This document shows, piece by piece, positions 1-10,078 of a DNA stretch of 64,000 nucleotides. Every line of letters starts with the position of its first letter. The first letter of the stretch is position 1. Source of the DNA: Escherichia phage Pollock; sequence record NC_027381.1; one strand, 5' to 3'. The position numbers and the translations under genes were made by a program. The notes beneath the pieces are model-generated. The model was not told where the DNA came from. It did not search any database and worked only from the letters and a program-made list of their open reading frames with translations.

Positions 1-60
1 AATGCACACAATCATTCTGTAAGCAAAGTACTCCCCCCCCCCCATACTTCACACATTGAT

Positions 61-85
61 GAGTCTTCGACTCTAGTGGAGCAAT
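61..85 (+). promoter_or_regulatory. Hairpin promoter-like motif copy 1 (candidate virion-RNAP early promoter)
   Basis: Inverted repeat gagtc-TTC-gactc (5-bp stem, 3-nt loop) followed by tagtggagcaat; same architecture recurs at 1501, 1551 and 3828; lies about 45 nt upstream of ORF 119..454. N4 vRNAP promoters are small DNA hairpins with 3-nt loops. Confidence 0.5.
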
Positions 86-118
86 GGTGCTCTACTTAAT
101 CATGATTAGGAGTATGTT

Positions 119-454
119 ATGAAACCTGTTAACTCTATCGGTATCTTTGGTGCTGTATCTTCCTCTACTGTATCTGCATTGAATGCAATTGAACGTGGTG
201 CAGTAGCTGTAGCTAATACTGCTAACATGGCAGTAGCTCTTACTGAATGGGGTAATGAGGAGATTGAGAACCTTCGTCATCATCGTGCTATGAAGCGTGA
301 AGTAGAAGGTGAAATCTTCCGAACCAAGTATGTAATGGAAGCAGCTAAAGAAGTAGCTGAAGTACATGCAGAAGCCAATAAAGCTATGGAGAGTGCATCT
401 CCCGAAGTTAAAGCAGTATTTGATGCATTAGTAGCTAAGCATCTCAACAAGTAA
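119..454 (+). CDS. Early hypothetical protein, Ala-rich, 111 aa
   Basis: ORF directly downstream of hairpin motif copy 1; followed by hairpin plus T-run terminator at 463..487; no recognisable domain. Confidence 0.5.
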   Translation: MKPVNSIGIFGAVSSSTVSALNAIERGAVAVANTANMAVALTEWGNEEIENLRHHRAMKREVEGEIFRTKYVMEAAKEVAEVHAEANKAMESASPEVKAVFDALVAKHLNK

Positions 455-462
455 TTACTAAG

Positions 463-487
463 CCTACTCTTCGGAGTAGGTTTAAAA
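463..487 (+). terminator. Rho-independent terminator
   Basis: cctactc-ttcg-gagtagg stem-loop followed by TTT, immediately after the stop of ORF 119..454. Confidence 0.6.
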
Positions 488-696
488 ATTCTAATTCACA
501 CATTACACATCAGATAGATAGTATGTACATAAACACATGTGTATCCATACATATCGCTATAACGCTCTAGGAAGCTCTACAATGAGATTAAGGGTAGAGG
601 TAATAGGGTAACTCATGTTGATTTAATTCAATTGATTCTAGCTATGCTAGAAGACTTATACATTACTTACTTCTTAAGCTTCTCACTTCGTGAGTA

Positions 697-1035
697 ATGG
701 GTAGAAGTAAAAGGAGTATTTCAATGGCTATCATCAAATCAATCATAGGTTCTAATACAGAACCAGAAACACTTGTAGTAAACAAATACAAAGAGCCATA
801 CGATGTATACATCGGTAGAGGTTCAATATGGGGGAATCCCTTTACAATTCAAGAATATGGTAGAGGCAGATGTATAGCCATGTATGAGCAATACATACGT
901 CAAAGACTACATCAAGAACCAGACCTATACCTTCAATTACTTGAGCTTAAAGGTAAGCGATTAGGATGCTTCTGCAAACCTAAAGCATGTCATGGAGACA
1001 TACTTATTAAGCTTATCCAAGAGTACTCAAACTAA
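697..1035 (+). CDS. DUF4326-like protein
   Basis: Motifs YDVYIGRGSIWGNPF and C-terminal GCFCKPKACHGD resemble the DUF4326 family signature. Confidence 0.5.
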   Translation: MGRSKRSISMAIIKSIIGSNTEPETLVVNKYKEPYDVYIGRGSIWGNPFTIQEYGRGRCIAMYEQYIRQRLHQEPDLYLQLLELKGKRLGCFCKPKACHGDILIKLIQEYSN

Positions 1036-1500
1036 TATCCTAATTTTCCTTATTTTCAATAAATATACTATAGAACACCTAAAGACTATCTAGATATTTA
1101 AAAGGGTTATTTATGGTTACTCAAATCACAGTAGCTGAATGCGTTCGATTGGAATGGGAAAGTCATTATTACTTACCATTTATTGAACGTTACAAACTAA
1201 TCTCATTAATCAAAAGAATACTGGAGAACTAAATGGAATGGTGGAAAGCAGAACTAATCCAGTCAGTAATTGGAGCAATTATTGGTTTAGTTGTTGTCTA
1301 TGCAATGGTTAAGTTTGGAGGAGATGAAGATGCGTAAATCATTAATCATGGGTACTAAAGCTGATGTTATTAAGATGAAAGCTAAACGTCAGATGTATAA
1401 AACAGTGACTTTTGCAGAACGTTATAGTACATCTGAACCAGTGAATCGTATTGTTACTTTCAATCATCCAATCCTTAAAACTATGTAACCCTTTTCATCA

Positions 1501-1525
1501 CCGTCTTCGACGGTGGTGGAGTAAT
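1501..1525 (+). promoter_or_regulatory. Hairpin promoter-like motif copy 2
   Basis: ccgtc-TTC-gacgg followed by tggtggagtaat. Confidence 0.5.
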
Positions 1526-1550
1526 CCTCAAGATTCTCCTTCGTTTGTAA

Positions 1551-1577
1551 GAGCGACTTCGTCGCTGGTGGAATAAT
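1551..1577 (+). promoter_or_regulatory. Hairpin promoter-like motif copy 3
   Basis: agcgac-TTC-gtcgct followed by ggtggaataat; about 40 nt upstream of ORF 1607..2020. Confidence 0.5.
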
Positions 1578-1606
1578 CCAATTAATTAACTATCGAGGTA
1601 TATATC

Positions 1607-2020
1607 ATGGCTATTCTGAATGGAAATAACGCTTCTTCTATCATCGGTGCTGCTCTGAATGGTAAAGCTACAAACAATACTCAACGTCCTCAAGCTGAAA
1701 TCTTTCTGAATGTAGGTATTACTGTTCAGTTACCTAACGAAGAAGGAGAAATGGTTGATACTTTCCTGTCTCTGCCATTTGGTTTACCACTGGATACTAT
1801 GAATGAATTAGTAATTCGCGGTAGTAACGCTCAATGGAATGGGCAAGCTGCTGCTCGTAATGAGTTACTGAAGGCTTTGATGAAAATGGGTGAATCTCTG
1901 GAAGCTGGTAGTGGTACAGAGTTACCTAAACTTCAGGTTCAATTATATCGTCGTAAAGCACAGGAAGAACATATTGCAAGCAACAATGCAATGTCTCAAA
2001 TCCTTGCTGCATTAAGCTAA
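1607..2020 (+). CDS. Early hypothetical protein, 137 aa
   Basis: ORF downstream of tandem hairpin motifs; codon choice (CTG, CGT, GGT) differs from neighbouring AT-rich ORFs, suggesting high expression; terminator follows. Confidence 0.5.
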   Translation: MAILNGNNASSIIGAALNGKATNNTQRPQAEIFLNVGITVQLPNEEGEMVDTFLSLPFGLPLDTMNELVIRGSNAQWNGQAAARNELLKALMKMGESLEAGSGTELPKLQVQLYRRKAQEEHIASNNAMSQILAALS

Positions 2021-2028
2021 TACTAATC

Positions 2029-2053
2029 GGGGAGCCTTCGGGTTCCCCTTTTA
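2029..2053 (+). terminator. Rho-independent terminator
   Basis: ggggagcc-ttcg-ggttcccc stem-loop followed by TTTT. Confidence 0.7.
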
Positions 2054-2055
2054 AA

Positions 2056-2250
2056 TTGGAGGTAGGTATGAAGATATTAGCAGTGTTTCTATTGTTCTTA
2101 TTACTGCTTAGTAATGTATTACTGGAAGTACTTGATAAGGATACAGTGCAATATCAACAACAAATGGAATGCATTAAGAAGAAAATATCTCATGGCATTC
2201 CACGTAGTTCAATCCAGTTAACAGACAGTTCTTGTAAGGTGATTAAATGA
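2056..2250 (+). CDS. Small membrane or secreted protein, 64 aa
   Basis: N-terminal hydrophobic stretch ILAVFLLFLLLLSNVLL. Confidence 0.35.
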   Translation: MEVGMKILAVFLLFLLLLSNVLLEVLDKDTVQYQQQMECIKKKISHGIPRSSIQLTDSSCKVIK

Positions 2251-2426
2251 GTATCTTTATTGTAGTTTTATTTTTCTTTCTTCTTCTCCCTTCTTTTAGA
2301 AGATTAGTATTTAAAGCACTTCGTGCTCTTCTCAGAGTATTTGGATTTGTTTTATTTATTCCAGTAATTATATGTACTGTTATTTATGCATCAATAAAAG
2401 AAGCAAATCATAAAAGAAGATATTAA
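2247..2426 (+). CDS. Small hydrophobic protein, 59 aa (hand-called, below ORF-track cutoff)
   Basis: ATG overlapping the upstream stop (ATGA); product largely hydrophobic (IFIVVLFFFLLLP, FGFVLFIPVIICTVIY). Confidence 0.3.
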   Translation: MSIFIVVLFFFLLLPSFRRLVFKALRALLRVFGFVLFIPVIICTVIYASIKEANHKRRY

Positions 2427-2476
2427 ATAACAGCTCCCAATTAAGGGAGCTTATTAAACTATTAAAGAGATAGTCG

Positions 2477-2722
2477 ATGAATAAAGAATTAATATTTATT
2501 CTTAGTTGCATACGTGAATCAATGTGTGATTACACAGAAGATGAATATGAAAATGATACATCTCAATATACGAAAACAGATGACTTATGTCTTGAAGTAA
2601 TGCTCCATAAATGTTCTTCCTTTCCTAAAGAAGAAAAAAATTGTAATGCTTGCCTATTAACTTATAAAAATAATATTGGGTATTCATCTCAAATAACAAT
2701 AGTTATTCAAAAATTAATCTAA
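2477..2722 (+). CDS. Small Cys-rich protein, paralog family member (MNKELIxIL N-terminus)
   Basis: N-terminus MNKELIFILSCI shared with ORFs at 3044, 3214, 3387, 3599, 4381, 5732 and 5923; several Cys in C-x(n)-C ... C-x2-C spacing. Confidence 0.45.
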   Translation: MNKELIFILSCIRESMCDYTEDEYENDTSQYTKTDDLCLEVMLHKCSSFPKEEKNCNACLLTYKNNIGYSSQITIVIQKLI

Positions 2723-2795
2723 AGATTATCAATATTGGTAGTCCAATATTAATGTCTCTTTAGATAGTTACTCGTTAATCCAAAAGGATATCAAT

Positions 2796-3035
2796 ATGTC
2801 AAAGAAACCTAAATCACTTAAACTGCAAGAAGTTAAATTAGGAGATGTTCCTGATTATTTAGTTACTTATAGTCGTGTAGACCGTATCTGGGGAGTACAT
2901 ATTAATGGTACTTCTGTATATATTCTTAAACGATTAGTAGGTAAAAAGTACATGTATTATGTAGGTAGTCGTTATTTTAAGACACTACGTAATGCAATAT
3001 TTAGTGTTGTATTAGGAAATTCACTTCCTTTCTAG
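2796..3035 (+). CDS. Hypothetical protein, 79 aa
   Basis: ORF with AAGGA upstream; no recognisable domain. Confidence 0.35.
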   Translation: MSKKPKSLKLQEVKLGDVPDYLVTYSRVDRIWGVHINGTSVYILKRLVGKKYMYYVGSRYFKTLRNAIFSVVLGNSLPF

Positions 3036-3043
3036 GAGAAGTA

Positions 3044-3217
3044 TTGAACCAAGAATTAATACTTATTCTCTCATCTATAAGTAAATCAAAACTTTGGTGT
3101 AATTGTTATCCTATAGCATGTACTGGAGTACATTGTTTTCATTGCGTTTTGTATGAGGATATCCAACCTAGTATGTATATTGCTAAAATTTTAAAAATAG
3201 GTGAGAGAATACTATGA
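3044..3217 (+). CDS. Small Cys-rich protein, paralog family member (TTG start, hand-called)
   Basis: Translation LNQELILILSSISKSKLWCNCYPIACTGVHCFHCVLYED; AGGAG about 7 nt upstream of the TTG; stop overlaps the next paralog start. Confidence 0.4.
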   Translation: MNQELILILSSISKSKLWCNCYPIACTGVHCFHCVLYEDIQPSMYIAKILKIGERIL

Positions 3218-3390
3218 ATAAAGAATTGATAGCTATTCTTAATTATATAGAATCATGTCCAAATTTGTGTATTCACCTAACTCCACATATTGCTTGTAAT
3301 AATATTTCATGTACTTGTTGTCCTATGTTTAGAGTAATTAGAAGAACTTACTTTAAAGACATAGCAAAAGTAGTAGAAAGAATAGTATGA
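3214..3390 (+). CDS. Small Cys-rich protein, paralog family member (hand-called, 58 aa)
   Basis: Translation MNKELIAILNYIESCPNLCIHLTPHIACNNISCTCCPMF...; ATGA overlaps with both neighbours. Confidence 0.45.
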   Translation: MNKELIAILNYIESCPNLCIHLTPHIACNNISCTCCPMFRVIRRTYFKDIAKVVERIV

Positions 3391-3602
3391 ATCAGGAATT
3401 AATACTTATTCTTAAATCTCTGTGTAATATAGAAGATTACTCAATAAGAGGAATTCTATGTACAGTCATAATAGCAAAACCAAATGAAATAGGATGTGAA
3501 CACATATCATGTAGTAATTGTTATTTTGTTAGAACAGGGCCTGTAAAACACGAATATAAATTAAAAATTAGAGAAACAATTGAGAACTTTAAAACAATAT
3601 GA
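3387..3602 (+). CDS. Small Cys-rich protein, paralog family member
   Basis: MNQELILILKSL N-terminus; CEHISCSNCYF Cys cluster; 4-nt overlap with the next paralog. Confidence 0.5.
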   Translation: MNQELILILKSLCNIEDYSIRGILCTVIIAKPNEIGCEHISCSNCYFVRTGPVKHEYKLKIRETIENFKTI

Positions 3603-3805
3603 ATAAGGAATTATTATTAATAATTCAATCACTAGTTAATTTAATTTATCTTTATCATAAGAATATGCTTTGTAAAGAAATAAGAGGAAAAGCTCCGAAA
3701 TTACACTGTATCGGTGTAGAGTGCGCTAATTGCTATTATTCTTTGTCTTCTCCTGTAGAAAAAAGATATGGCTTAAAGATAGAAACCACCATTAAACAAT
3801 TCTAA
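3599..3805 (+). CDS. Small Cys-rich protein, paralog family member
   Basis: MNKELLLIIQSL N-terminus; CIGVECANCYY Cys cluster. Confidence 0.5.
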   Translation: MNKELLLIIQSLVNLIYLYHKNMLCKEIRGKAPKLHCIGVECANCYYSLSSPVEKRYGLKIETTIKQF

Positions 3806-3827
3806 TTCTCTTTGTCGCTTCGCTCCT

Positions 3828-3852
3828 CTGCCTTCGGCAGTTCTGGGGTAAT
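3828..3852 (+). promoter_or_regulatory. Hairpin promoter-like motif copy 4
   Basis: ctgcc-TTC-ggcag followed by ttctggggtaat; about 30 nt upstream of macro-domain ORF 3870. Confidence 0.45.
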
Positions 3853-3869
3853 TTCATTTAGAGGTACTT

Positions 3870-4373
3870 ATGTTAGAAGCTCGCGGTAATATGCTTGAGA
3901 TGGATTGTGATGCTCTATGCATTACTACTAATGGATTTGTTAAAAGCAATGGTGCATCAGTTATGGGTGCAGGTATTGCTAAACAAGTTCGAATAGCTAT
4001 TCCGGGAATTGATAAGATTTTAGGACAGAAAATTGCTCGTGAAGGCAATAACGTTCATCCAATCATTAACCATAATAATATCTGGATAGTATCCTTTCCT
4101 GTTAAACCAATAACTGAAATCAGTAATGGGAGTAACTTCGTAAAACATAAATATTTCCCTGAAGGGACAACAGTTCCGGGATGGGCATGTAAAGCGAATA
4201 TCAACTTGATAGTACGTTCCTGTCATCAGTTAGTAAAACTAGCTAATCAGTATGGTTGGCAGAAAGTATTACTACCTAGACCGGGATGTGGTGCTGGAGA
4301 ACTTAACTGGAATTATGTGAAAAAGGTTATCGAACCTTTATTAGATGACAGATTTATTGTCTGTACTTATTAA
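3870..4373 (+). CDS. Macro-domain-like protein (putative ADP-ribose binding or hydrolysing)
   Basis: N-terminal DALCITTNGFVKSNGASVMGAGIAKQ resembles the macro-domain DA-x-V-N-A-A-N ... G-G-G-V motif region; C-terminal LLPRPGCGAGEL resembles the second glycine-rich loop. Confidence 0.5.
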   Translation: MLEARGNMLEMDCDALCITTNGFVKSNGASVMGAGIAKQVRIAIPGIDKILGQKIAREGNNVHPIINHNNIWIVSFPVKPITEISNGSNFVKHKYFPEGTTVPGWACKANINLIVRSCHQLVKLANQYGWQKVLLPRPGCGAGELNWNYVKKVIEPLLDDRFIVCTY

Positions 4374-4380
4374 AATATTT

Positions 4381-4587
4381 ATGAAAGATGAATTAATCAT
4401 CATTTTAAATGAAATATGGTCATTACCAGAATACCAAAATATACGTGGTCCTAAGGAAGAATTATGTAGAAGAATAACATGTACCGGAGTTCACTGTACA
4501 AATTGTCCTCTTGGTTATTTCTTAAAAGACGAAGATTACGTCTCTCAAATCCATAAAATATTGGAAGTCATTAATCATGAAATATGA
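4381..4587 (+). CDS. Small Cys-rich protein, paralog family member
   Basis: MKDELIIILNEI N-terminus; CTGVHCTNCPLGYF Cys cluster (same CTGVHC as ORF 3044). ORF track begins at 4345; ATG 4381 after the macro-domain stop is the likelier start. Confidence 0.5.
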   Translation: MKDELIIILNEIWSLPEYQNIRGPKEELCRRITCTGVHCTNCPLGYFLKDEDYVSQIHKILEVINHEI

Positions 4588-5500
4588 AACTCAACTCCTG
4601 ATTGAATCTATGTTCAACCGTCATCAAGAACGTGAACTCATTAGAAATGAATTAAGAAGTTCACCTGAAATTATGGAGTTAGTTAATGCTGCTGTTAGTA
4701 AAGCATTGGAATGGGTTAAAGGAGATTACTTTGAAAGTAAGAATAAACGTTTAGCTTTATTAGATACCAATATTTTAGAAGATTTTTATATTGATGTTGC
4801 TGGTTCATTGGCTCAGTTTGGTAAAGCTAAGTATACCCAAGTAGTAGGTATGGTGTCTGGGATGATAACTACTATGTCTCAGAAAGAGGCTATACGTACT
4901 GCTGGCGAGTTAATTTCATTAGCAGCTATGGTAGACCTAGTTGATGTGATTCCTGCGTCTATGAGCATTACAGGCTCTATGGAATTGGTTTCTCGTATTC
5001 AACTTGAACCAAAAACATTAGAACTGATTGACCAGTATCAGTATCTTCCTCCAATGATTGTTCCACCTGAACCAGTTAAATCAAATACTGGTAGTGGATA
5101 CCTGTCTATTAAATGGGATTCGTTAATTCTTAAAAAGAATCATCATGAACATGATATCTGTTTAGATAATATCAATAGATTCAATTCTGTAGCATTTTGT
5201 CTGAATGAACGAGTTATCCGTAATATTCGAGATAATCGTAAACATCTGGATAGTGCTAAAGCAGATGAGACTGCTGATGAGTTTAAAGCACGAGTAGAGT
5301 CATTCCTAAAAATGGAAAAAGAATCTATGAAAGTATTTGCAATGCTCATCAATGAAGGAAATAGATTTTATCTAACTCATAAATATGACAAACGAGGACG
5401 TACTTACTGTCAAGGTTACCATGTCTCCTACCAAGGTAATACGTATCGTAAAGCTATTCTTGAATTAGCTGATAAAGAAATAGTACCTATTGAGGAATAA
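4577..5500 (+). CDS. Phage RNA polymerase II subunit 1 (N-terminal portion of a T7-like RNAP; N4 RNAP II small-subunit analog)
   Basis: C-terminal DKRGRTYCQGYHVSYQGNTYRKAILELADKE aligns with T7 RNAP DWRGRVYAVSMFNPQGNDMTKGLLTLAKGK; upstream of the catalytic subunit ORF as in N4-like phages. Confidence 0.7.
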   Translation: MKYETQLLIESMFNRHQERELIRNELRSSPEIMELVNAAVSKALEWVKGDYFESKNKRLALLDTNILEDFYIDVAGSLAQFGKAKYTQVVGMVSGMITTMSQKEAIRTAGELISLAAMVDLVDVIPASMSITGSMELVSRIQLEPKTLELIDQYQYLPPMIVPPEPVKSNTGSGYLSIKWDSLILKKNHHEHDICLDNINRFNSVAFCLNERVIRNIRDNRKHLDSAKADETADEFKARVESFLKMEKESMKVFAMLINEGNRFYLTHKYDKRGRTYCQGYHVSYQGNTYRKAILELADKEIVPIEE

Positions 5501-5502
5501 TT

Positions 5503-5739
5503 ATGGCTGAATTATCTAAACCAGAACAACTCATTAAGATTACGTTATTACTCCGTAATATTCCAAATGAGTTAGATACGCATTTTTGTAGTACTCATCC
5601 TGCATGTGAAAAATTATGTGGACCTAAACATGATAAAAGTAAATGTGCTTTATTTACATGCTCTGAAGAAGAGATTAAGAAAACTATCTTTGGATTAGAT
5701 GCAGCAGGGAGAATGTTAGGAATTATCCCTGATGAATAA
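5503..5739 (+). CDS. Small Cys-rich protein, 78 aa (divergent)
   Basis: Multiple Cys (CSTHPAC, CGPKHDKSKC, FTC); lies between the two RNAP subunit genes. Confidence 0.4.
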   Translation: MAELSKPEQLIKITLLLRNIPNELDTHFCSTHPACEKLCGPKHDKSKCALFTCSEEEIKKTIFGLDAAGRMLGIIPDE

Positions 5740-5926
5740 AGAATTAGTTTTAATCCTTAAAGAAATAAAAAGAGTATCTGAAACTTCTAAACATGGATGT
5801 ACTGGTAGTAAATTTAAAGAATTATTTCGTTGTTTAAATGTATCTTGTGGAGTATGTATATTAAATAATATACAAAATCCAAAAAAGTATAATTATCAAA
5901 TATTCTCTATTCCAATAAATCTATGA
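5732..5926 (+). CDS. Small Cys-rich protein, paralog family member
   Basis: MNKELVLILKEI N-terminus; CLNVSCGVC cluster. Confidence 0.5.
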   Translation: MNKELVLILKEIKRVSETSKHGCTGSKFKELFRCLNVSCGVCILNNIQNPKKYNYQIFSIPINL

Positions 5927-6135
5927 ATAAACAATTTATTCTTATATTGGATTCAATTAGGGATTGGGCAAAATCAGAATTTTCTTGTAAGGGTGGACTG
6001 TTAACTATACGCGATACATATATAAATGAACATTTATGTGGGTATTTATGTACCTCATGCCCTATTGTTCAAGTAAGAAGTAAACAACTTTATCCCGACC
6101 AAATCATTCAAACTTCCTCTCAACTAATTAAGTGA
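5923..6135 (+). CDS. Small Cys-rich protein, paralog family member
   Basis: MNKQFILILDSI N-terminus; CGYLCTSCP cluster; 4-nt overlap with the RNAP catalytic subunit start. Confidence 0.5.
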   Translation: MNKQFILILDSIRDWAKSEFSCKGGLLTIRDTYINEHLCGYLCTSCPIVQVRSKQLYPDQIIQTSSQLIK

Positions 6136-7370
6136 GACTCAATATGCAACAGTTTACAGCTTTCCAATATATCAAATTAGATATTGCTAACTCTTTTGGT
6201 TTAGATAAAGAACTGTTTGATGACCGTATCAAATGGTTTGAAGAAAACAAAAATAATTTAGCTAATTTGGTAAATGATGCAGATGAACCTGCTCAATTCT
6301 ACGCAGGTATGTTGGCATACCAAGATGTACTGGAAGGTAAACCAATTGGTTATTTAGTAGGTATGGATGCTACTGCATCTGGATTGCAGTGTATGGCTGC
6401 ATTAACTGGCTGTAAGACTACCGCTGAAACAGTAAATCTTATTGACCCTAATTGTCGTAAAGATGCTTATACCGATGGCTATAAAGTCATGGGAGAACTA
6501 CTTAATGGCAAGATTGATAAGATTGACCGTAAGGATTTGAAGGGAGCTATTATGACTCACTTCTATGGTTCTCAAGCAAATCCTAGAAGTGTATTTGGTG
6601 AAAATACTATAGAACTACAAAAGTTCTATGAAACTGTTCAAACCATTGCTCCCGGTGCAAATATGCTACGAGATGATTTAATCAATCTCTGGCAACCAAA
6701 AGCACTTCAACATTTATGGGAATTACCAGATGGCTTTACTGCTGTCGTTAAAGTAATGACCATGAAAGAAGAAAGCTTTGAAGTAAATGAATTAAATAGT
6801 TCCTTTACTCATCGTTATTGGGTTAATGAGGGTCAGGATTTTGGTTTATCACTTGCTGCTAATGTTGTTCACTCTGTAGATGGGATGGTAGTACGTGAGA
6901 TGAATCGTCGTGCTAACTACGATGAAACCAAAATACAGCGTGTATATGAGCTTCTGACTGGTTCAAACAATACAGGTATTGTGGACTATACAGTAGATGA
7001 TAAACAGCTTAAGAGAGCTATTGAGCTTGCTGAAAGACATCGTTTTGTTTCTACTGTGATGATTGAGTTCATTAACCATGAGAATGTACATATGATTCCT
7101 TTATGGATTAAGAACCAACTCATCGAAATTATTGAGAAGATGTTGGCTCATAAACCATATGCATTAATTGCAATTCATGATTGCTTTAAATGCCATCCTC
7201 TGTATATGAATAACGTGCGTCAGAACTACATTGATATCTTTGCTCAGATTGCAGATAGCACAATGCTTCAAGCAATTGCATCTCAAATCTCTGGTAAACG
7301 TATTCCAGTAACTAAACTGTCTAATGACCTTTCAACATACATTCGTAAATCCAACTACATGCTTAGTTAA
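6132..7370 (+). CDS. Phage RNA polymerase II catalytic subunit (T7-like single-subunit RNAP palm and fingers)
   Basis: Motif A-like GMDATASGLQC (T7 DGSCSGIQH), motif B-like RKDLKGAIMTHFYGS (T7 KRSVMTLAYGS), NVVHSVDGMVVRE (T7 NFVHSQDGSHLRK), motif C-like IAIHDCF (T7 LIHDSF). Confidence 0.85.
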   Translation: MRLNMQQFTAFQYIKLDIANSFGLDKELFDDRIKWFEENKNNLANLVNDADEPAQFYAGMLAYQDVLEGKPIGYLVGMDATASGLQCMAALTGCKTTAETVNLIDPNCRKDAYTDGYKVMGELLNGKIDKIDRKDLKGAIMTHFYGSQANPRSVFGENTIELQKFYETVQTIAPGANMLRDDLINLWQPKALQHLWELPDGFTAVVKVMTMKEESFEVNELNSSFTHRYWVNEGQDFGLSLAANVVHSVDGMVVREMNRRANYDETKIQRVYELLTGSNNTGIVDYTVDDKQLKRAIELAERHRFVSTVMIEFINHENVHMIPLWIKNQLIEIIEKMLAHKPYALIAIHDCFKCHPLYMNNVRQNYIDIFAQIADSTMLQAIASQISGKRIPVTKLSNDLSTYIRKSNYMLS

Positions 7371-10010: not shown

Positions 10011-10030
10011 CGCACTTCGTGCGTCTCTTA
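10011..10030 (+). promoter_or_regulatory. Second-class hairpin motif (TTC loop plus TCTCTT)
   Basis: cgcac-TTC-gtgcg followed by tctcttagg, then a terminator-like hairpin. Confidence 0.3.
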
Positions 10031-10053
10031 GGAGTCATTTTGGCTCCTTTTTA
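10031..10053 (+). terminator. Rho-independent terminator
   Basis: ggagtca-ttt-tggctcc stem-loop followed by TTTTT. Confidence 0.6.
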
Positions 10054-10078
10054 TTAACATCTGAAAGAGGAATTTATT

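Follow-up and report, generated by a model that had tools for sequence, protein, structure and literature searches.

A DUF4326 gene behind a putative early promoter hairpin at the left end of the Escherichia phage Pollock genome, and a tentative link to NAD and ADP-ribose chemistry

The stretch of DNA analysed here, 64,000 nucleotides of Escherichia phage Pollock (NC_027381.1; hereafter the window), makes up the left end of the genome of an N4-like phage (Schitoviridae). Near-certainly, bases 724-1035 of its forward strand are a genuine gene for a 103-amino-acid protein of the DUF4326 family, to which phage N4 gp12 also belongs. A hairpin just upstream, at 682-694, is probably an early promoter for the virion RNA polymerase, and the product may be a cysteine-dependent enzyme of NAD and ADP-ribose chemistry deployed against host immunity. 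For the explanation as a whole, with identity, early expression and mechanism taken jointly, we estimate a probability of about 0.4, while the mechanism by itself is a prediction that we hold with considerable doubt.

Identity and extent of the gene

The open reading frame at 697-1035 (forward strand, 112 amino acids) was confirmed, and its translation matches Pfam DUF4326 (PF14216) with E=1.4e-25 and 90.2 bits over profile positions 4-81 of 82, the gathering cut-off of the family being 25 bits. The same protein matches PHROG 464 with E=3.8e-41, and the DUF4326 match is far above chance level. An earlier note on this DNA, made from the letters alone, had recognised the DUF4326 signature in two motifs, and both lie within this frame: YDVYIGRGSIWGNPF is encoded by 799-843 and GCFCKPKACHGD by 964-999. 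The profile hidden Markov model (HMM) search that it had proposed as a check thus returned a significant match to the family.

The longest frame starts at 697, and the likeliest form of the gene, judged from the Pfam and PHROG matches, the length of its homologues and a three-phage alignment, is 724-1035. Translation probably begins at the in-frame ATG at 724, which gives 103 amino acids and a stop codon. Four points favour it: a Shine-Dalgarno sequence, AAAGGAG, can be read at 710-716, 7 nt before this ATG, with purine-rich counterparts at the same place in Salmonella phage FSL SP-058 and Klebsiella phage MY01; the closest database homologues of the protein (96% identity) are 103 amino acids long; the nine codons of 697-724 diverge freely in the alignment with these two phages, where conservation holds from 724 onward; and the transcript start proposed below, at about 699, would fall inside the ATG at 697. 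The start at 697 was rejected, as was an antisense reading frame at 663-812.

The Pollock gene adds a member to a known and widespread family, its product being 81-86% identical to annotated orthologues. These are found in the Humphriesvirinae (SP-058, where the gene is SP058_00010, SP154 and the Klebsiella phages MY01, Pylas and KpCHEMY26), in which the gene is likewise the second from the left end and shares the upstream hairpin and terminator; their records annotate the longer 112-amino-acid form. SP-058 itself is classified in the Schitoviridae, Humphriesvirinae, Ithacavirus, and the first 6 kb of the window are 84% identical to it over 68% of their length, starting from base 1 of SP-058.

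A putative promoter for the virion RNA polymerase

The hairpin at 682-694 (forward strand), CTCAC-TTC-GTGAG followed by TAATGGG, is a putative N4-type early promoter, as judged by a hairpin scan, covariation in MY01 and comparison with N4. It has the features of that type, namely a 5-bp stem, a 3-nt loop, a template-strand purine at the loop centre, conserved flanks and a coding-strand site 5' of early genes. In MY01 the stem reads GTACC-TTC-GGTAC, a compensatory change in which the loop and flank are kept. Hairpins with a 5-bp stem and a TTC loop number 11 on the forward strand and 1 on the reverse strand, 12 in total against 3.5 expected from shuffles for both strands together. Five of the forward-strand sites (61-73, 682-694, 1501-1513, 1553-1565 and 3828-3840) lie before early genes, carry the downstream pattern NNNTGG..AAT and are probable early promoters of the virion RNA polymerase. 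The template strands of all five can form GAA-loop hairpins in the same register, with z between -2.5 and -3.6 (z=-2.8 at 682-694).

An identical scan of the N4 genome returned hairpins of the same build before gp1 (GTTGC-TTC-GCAAC ttatgg), gp2 (GAAGC-TCC-GCTTC ttttgg) and RNAP1 (GCTGC-TCC-GCAGC ttttgg), at positions that we take to be those of the early promoters P1-P3. Davydova et al. reportedly placed the loop centre of the N4 promoter at position -11 in 2007, and by analogy transcription in Pollock would start near 699. A sigma-70 scan of 1-2100 gave fewer promoter-like sites than were found in shuffles, and an Rfam search of 1-7000 at E<=0.1 gave no match.

The anatomy of the hairpin at 682-694 lends good support to early expression: the injected virion RNA polymerase probably transcribes the DUF4326 gene straight away. 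The gene would be the first of the second early transcription unit of this N4-like phage, and its protein would be made within the first minutes of infection. This agrees with the earlier note, which had put the gene in the earliest gene block: only one gene separates it from the left end of the genome, and it precedes the gp2-like gene and the genes for the RNA polymerase II subunits. In further N4-like contigs DUF4326 likewise occupies the early region, beside the RNA polymerase II genes, and in one of them a SLOG gene lies two genes downstream.

The more distant gp12 of N4 and G7C (Enquatrovirinae; 34-37% identity) also belongs to the early region that the virion RNA polymerase transcribes. 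N4 gp12 is 34% identical to the Pollock protein (E=1e-16) and falls in the same Pfam family. Unlike the Pollock gene, gp12 lies deep within the early operon, just before gp14 and RNAP1, and has no promoter of its own directly upstream. Its protein keeps the motifs IGRGS..GNPF and C-F-C-x-P-x-x-C-H-G, and the insert that separates helix 2 from strand 3 is longer than in Pollock.

Conserved residues and predicted fold

Residues C82, C84, C89 and H90 are invariant in all 100 relatives aligned and in 40 of 40 multidomain relatives; N38 is invariant alongside them in both sets, and all five are kept in N4 gp12. Nearly invariant among the 100 relatives are V18, V19, D27, I30, G31, R32, G37, P39, L75, G77, K78, L80, G81, P86, G91 and D92. 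The combinations diagnostic of the family (GR, GNP and C-x-C-x-P-x-x-C-H-G-D) are all present in the Pollock protein. The first motif, with D27, I30, G31, R32, G37, N38 and P39 invariant or nearly so, covers strand 2 and the loop that follows; in the second, strand 3 ends at C82, a loop runs to C89 and a helix begins at H90.

An AlphaFold2 model built on the 100-sequence alignment reached a predicted local distance difference test score (pLDDT) of 92.1, whereas a single-sequence model (pLDDT 44) was unusable. The modelled elements are a strand at 17-20, a short strand near 28, helices at 42-64 and 66-73, a strand at 79-82 and a helix at 90-102. Foldseek against BFVD gave 40 matches at E<=1e-3, most of the named ones annotated as DUF4326, with E down to 5e-11 at a template-modelling (TM) score of 0.8 and a maximum TM of 0.82; these matches reach into haloarchaeal and giant viruses. 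The structural comparison proposed in the earlier note thus places the protein in the predicted fold of other DUF4326 members.

In the model the invariant C-x-C-x4-C-H spans a strand end, a loop and a helix N-terminus, as the catalytic element of cysteine phosphatases and rhodaneses does. The rhodanese-phosphatase trait is a core strand that ends in a conserved cysteine, then a loop and a helix start, to which strand 79-82 with C82 and C84, the loop to C89 and the helix from 90 correspond in the model. This modelled strand-Cys-loop-helix element is common to DUF4326 and the rhodanese-phosphatase clade described in PMC9503650, but DUF4326 has three invariant cysteines and a histidine where the superfamily classically has C-x5-R.

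The abstract of a 2023 study by Burroughs and Aravind is said to define a RapZ-C-DUF488-DUF4326 clade, and this placement is weakly supported by our sequence comparisons. Sub-threshold matches to Pfam DUF488-N3a, which Pfam titles the 'Active DUF488-N3 subclade', occurred in 39 of the 100 members (best E=7e-4) and always over the C-terminal element, while no other family was hit in more than 6; for the Pollock protein itself the match is non-significant (E=0.049). RapZ was the top Foldseek match in the PDB, at a non-significant E=1.5. Alignment of the family profile with E. coli YeaO (DUF488) by hhalign was non-significant and contained no meaningful alignment, and sequence searches of the PDB with the protein and with the profile gave only chance matches (E>1).

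A match to the Csx3 ring nuclease (NCBIfam E=0.18, PADLOC E=0.024) was rejected as chance, with only 2 of the 100 family members matching. None of the PADLOC defence models matches the DUF4326 family, which is consistent with a domain employed by the virus.

Distribution, fusions and neighbours of the family

The statement of the earlier note that DUF4326 recurs in phages is amply borne out. A tblastn search found matches in 2086 of 50,697 phage records, among them T4-like, Vi01-like and jumbo phages and gp12 of the N4-like phage G7C. There are 2450 homologues in a 90%-clustered database, and an exhaustive HMMER search through 1.84 billion representatives (a 50%-clustered library) returned 10,228 at E<=1e-3. 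In the T4-like, Vi01-like, jumbo, haloarchaeal and giant-virus proteins the domain and its predicted fold are the same, at 35-55% identity. The genes of this group have other settings, such as the nrd cluster and replication modules, and their products are often fused to SLOG (DUF2493/YAcAr), NADAR, Macro or nuclease domains. In T4-like phages the homologue lies within the nrdA/nrdB cluster and is annotated nrdA.1, which accounts for the misleading label 'NrdA-like' of PHROG 24867.

Fusions were sampled in 40 long proteins among the 150 best representatives. The Pfam partners include members of SLOG families (YAcAr 6, YpsA 2, mSLOG 1 and DprA-like 1), beside one NADAR and one Macro domain, the former in a protein (P0179) that combines NADAR and DUF4326 in one polypeptide. 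RNase H (2), exonucleases (RNase_T and Rv2179c-like), sigma-70 (1) and RNA polymerase (1) made up further partners. Two proteins, P0121 (305 amino acids) and P0125 (352 amino acids), carry two or three tandem DUF4326 domains.

For the neighbourhoods, 80 viral loci with 10 kb available on each side were reduced to 58 clusters and searched for SLOG with an HMM iterated from the SLOG proteins of SP-058, MY01 and a further viral locus (L011). A SLOG gene or domain lies within 4.6 kb of DUF4326 in 11 of these 58 non-redundant loci; three are fused, and 9 of the 11 are either fused or within 1.3 kb. Pfam was scanned over 295 reading frames, comprising same-strand neighbours within 2 kb and frames overlapping the match, and in the first set of 145 the commonest family other than DUF4326 itself was SLOG (YAcAr, 5). 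Other recurrent neighbours in the 58 loci are SbcCD-type ATPase/phosphoesterase, NrdD/NrdG, RNR, UDG, family A DNA polymerase, SSB, RecA, ThyX and 5'-3' exonuclease. Single neighbours within 2 kb, seen in viral loci L038-L086, include Pfam Tad5, an inhibitor of type I Thoeris (E=2e-32), and T4 gp30.3.

One 90-kb viral contig (L010, 2620-6333) carries a DUF4326 gene that is stop/start-coupled to a 601-amino-acid NAPRTase-family gene, with a Prs-like (Pribosyltran_N) gene and a metallophosphoesterase close by. The layout is reminiscent of the phage NAD-reconstitution pathways that Osterman et al. reportedly described in 2024. Taken together, the link of DUF4326 to SLOG, NADAR and NAD genes is reproducible, the link to Macro is lineage-specific, and replication and nucleotide metabolism form a further, weaker association.

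Computational work has previously connected DUF4326 with ADP-ribose and NAD chemistry (PMC9503650, PMC7824862), and the study of jumbo phages among these reports fusions to components of replication and of restriction-modification (PMC7824862). In a preprint, giant-virus homologues of ORF83, a SLOG-like anti-Avs protein, are described as having a C-terminal DUF4326. The fusions and SLOG neighbours sampled here reproduce these published contextual observations.

Possible functions

The protein would be a single small alpha/beta domain, in which the invariant N38, C82, C84, C89 and H90, together with the nearly invariant R32 and D92, are predicted to sit on a strand-loop-helix element like that of cysteine phosphatases and rhodaneses. 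The likeliest function appears to be that of a cysteine-dependent enzyme of the RapZ-C/DUF488/DUF4326 clade, which would remove or transfer the ribose-attached phosphate of ADP-ribose, of NAD-derived nucleotides or of their breakdown products. Such an enzyme could serve as an early counter-measure against host immunity based on NAD or ADP-ribose, beside the macro-like protein encoded in the same early region and the SLOG protein that sister phages have.

The earlier note had cautiously suggested a role in nucleotide or ADP-ribose chemistry on the ground that a macro-domain gene lies in the same early block. The predicted role itself agrees with the published prediction, with the SLOG and NADAR fusions and with the coupling to a NAPRTase gene, but the argument from proximity is not a good one. 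A macro-domain gene of the window's type was found in 3 of the 58 loci, all of them the closest relatives, and Macro is absent from the recurrent Pfam neighbours. The recurrent partner is SLOG.

The failed co-occurrence with Macro is one of several points that weigh against a cysteine-dependent enzyme of ADP-ribose or NAD metabolism. The three invariant cysteines and the histidine resemble a metal site as much as a single nucleophile, and the modelled C-x-C-x4-C-H arrangement is compatible with one. Many neighbours in other genomes are genes of replication and nucleotide metabolism rather than of NAD metabolism. Pollock itself has no counterpart of the SLOG gene anywhere in the 64-kb window (tblastn), and in the literature that mentions DUF4326 we found no biochemical or genetic experiment on any member.

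The alternative that survives best, although we consider it unlikely, is an enzyme of nucleic-acid ends or of the nucleotide pool that serves phage replication, repair or modification with no specific tie to ADP-ribose signalling, for instance by cleaning phosphorylated or adducted DNA or RNA ends or by dephosphorylating a nucleotide. The T4-like homologue in the nrdA/nrdB cluster, the recurrent replication and nucleotide-metabolism neighbours in the 58 loci, the fusions to RNase H, RNase_T and Rv2179c-like exonucleases and the published fusions to replication and restriction-modification components (PMC7824862) are all in keeping with it. Yet such genes abound in the early and middle regions of lytic phages, which makes adjacency weak evidence; it is SLOG, and no single replication gene, to which DUF4326 is tightly and repeatedly coupled (fused or at most 1.3 kb away); and the Pollock gene is far from the replication module. 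To the same side belongs the 2023 abstract of Burroughs and Aravind, which reportedly predicts DNA-end processing for some members of the clade.

Two further proposals turn on a resemblance to NADAR. The only local match that hhalign found between the family and a 50-sequence NADAR alignment joins the helix and strand that precede motif 2 to the corresponding part of NADAR, at a probability of 0.5% and E=0.12. None of the 100 DUF4326 members matches Pfam NADAR (PF08719) even at E<=10, and the invariant NADAR residues (the E of EHxFQAxK, and D..WG) are absent from the DUF4326 consensus. Compared with NADAR proteins (YbiA; PDB 8BAU, 2B3W, 8BAT), DUF4326 is about half the size, has no profile similarity and is without the NADAR catalytic residues. 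We regard the resemblance as specific but weak, leave it unexplained and do not claim it as homology. Building on it, the gene could encode an immediate-early counter-defence enzyme with a Cys/His centre, possibly metal-bound, on a NADAR-like scaffold, which would dismantle an ADP-ribose-derived immune signal or adduct and would represent a third ADP-ribose-erasing activity beside Macro and NADAR; the NADAR link would then have been overlooked because the published classification puts the domain with phosphatases. We think this quite unlikely, both as to the activity and as to the overlooked link. Very unlikely, to our judgement, is a cut-down NADAR-like domain that binds ADP-ribose and cleaves the ribosyl (N-glycosidic) linkage instead of acting on phosphate, for example to reverse ADP-ribosylation of phage DNA or RNA bases: beyond the poor hhalign score and the lack of any Pfam match, the NADAR invariants are without counterpart in a family whose own invariants are Cys and His, and the presence of both domains in one polypeptide (P0179) argues for different jobs.

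A non-catalytic small protein with a C-x-C-x4-C-H metal site, which by binding to RNA, DNA or a host protein would steer the gene expression of host or phage at an early stage of infection, stands at similarly long odds. It would account for three invariant cysteines and a histidine within 9 residues, for the one fusion each with sigma-70 regions and with an RNA polymerase domain, for the place of the gene among the early regulatory genes of N4-like phages and for the non-significant Foldseek match to RapZ, whose related C-terminal domain is a small-RNA-binding module, but N20, D27, R32, N38 and D92, invariant polar residues outside the Cys cluster, speak rather for an enzyme pocket, as does the strand-loop-helix geometry, fusions to enzymatic nucleotide-processing domains are repeated, and the related DUF488-N3a subclade is named 'active' by Pfam.

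Among the orphan domains of lytic phages DUF4326 is one of the commoner, and it also occurs in haloarchaeal and giant viruses. The Pollock gene brings no new biology; its main value is to offer a common orphan domain in an easily tested form, as a stand-alone protein of 103 amino acids with its own predicted immediate-early promoter, in a phage that has a macro-like gene and is without the usual SLOG partner. It is well suited to showing whether the family counters bacterial immunity based on NAD or ADP-ribose.

Other features of the left end

The macro-like gene named in the earlier note does exist in the same early block, at 3870-4373 (forward strand) and with its own putative hairpin promoter at 3828, though the protein is divergent. 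Its match to Pfam Macro (E=0.017) is below threshold, that to PHROG 335 has E=1e-27, and it most resembles the DarG antitoxin macro domain (NCBIfam 8.7e-11, PADLOC 1.5e-11); a sequence search of the PDB with it gave no match. From these profile matches, the protein may be an anti-DarT or another ADP-ribosyl hydrolase.

Of the neighbouring genes, an N4 gp1-like gene occupies 119-454, the gp2-like gene 1607-2020 and the gene for the small subunit of RNA polymerase II 4577-5500. Early genes that span about 1.4 kb in SP-058 and MY01 are missing from the window at 1036-1606, and among these is the gene for the 119-amino-acid SLOG (YAcAr-type) protein that both phages have between DUF4326 and gp2.

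Terminator-like hairpins follow the gp1-like gene (CCTACTC-TTCG-GAGTAGG-TTT at 462-480, forward strand, with compensatory replacement of A:T by G:C in MY01) and the gp2-like gene (GGGGAGCC-TTCG-GGTTCCCC-TTTT at 2029-2048, forward strand). Between the first of them and the promoter at 682 lie about 200 nt of non-coding sequence (481-681) with no Rfam match, in which blocks such as TTCACACATTACACAT, ATAGGGTAAC and TTCTAG are conserved in SP-058 and MY01. A sixth hairpin, CGCAC-TTC-GTGCG at 10011-10023 (forward strand), is without the downstream TGG motif and is followed directly by a terminator-like stem and T-run (about 10028-10055); the two together, at 10011-10055, may mark the end of the early region.

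Scattered over the early region are at least eight paralogous small reading frames of 57-81 amino acids that start with MNKELILIL and share the pattern C...C-x4-C-x2-C...Y. They lie on the forward strand at 2477-2722, 3044-3805, 4345-4587 and 5732-6135, partly as a head-to-tail run of four. Near the left genome end, 11 consecutive C residues occupy 33-43.
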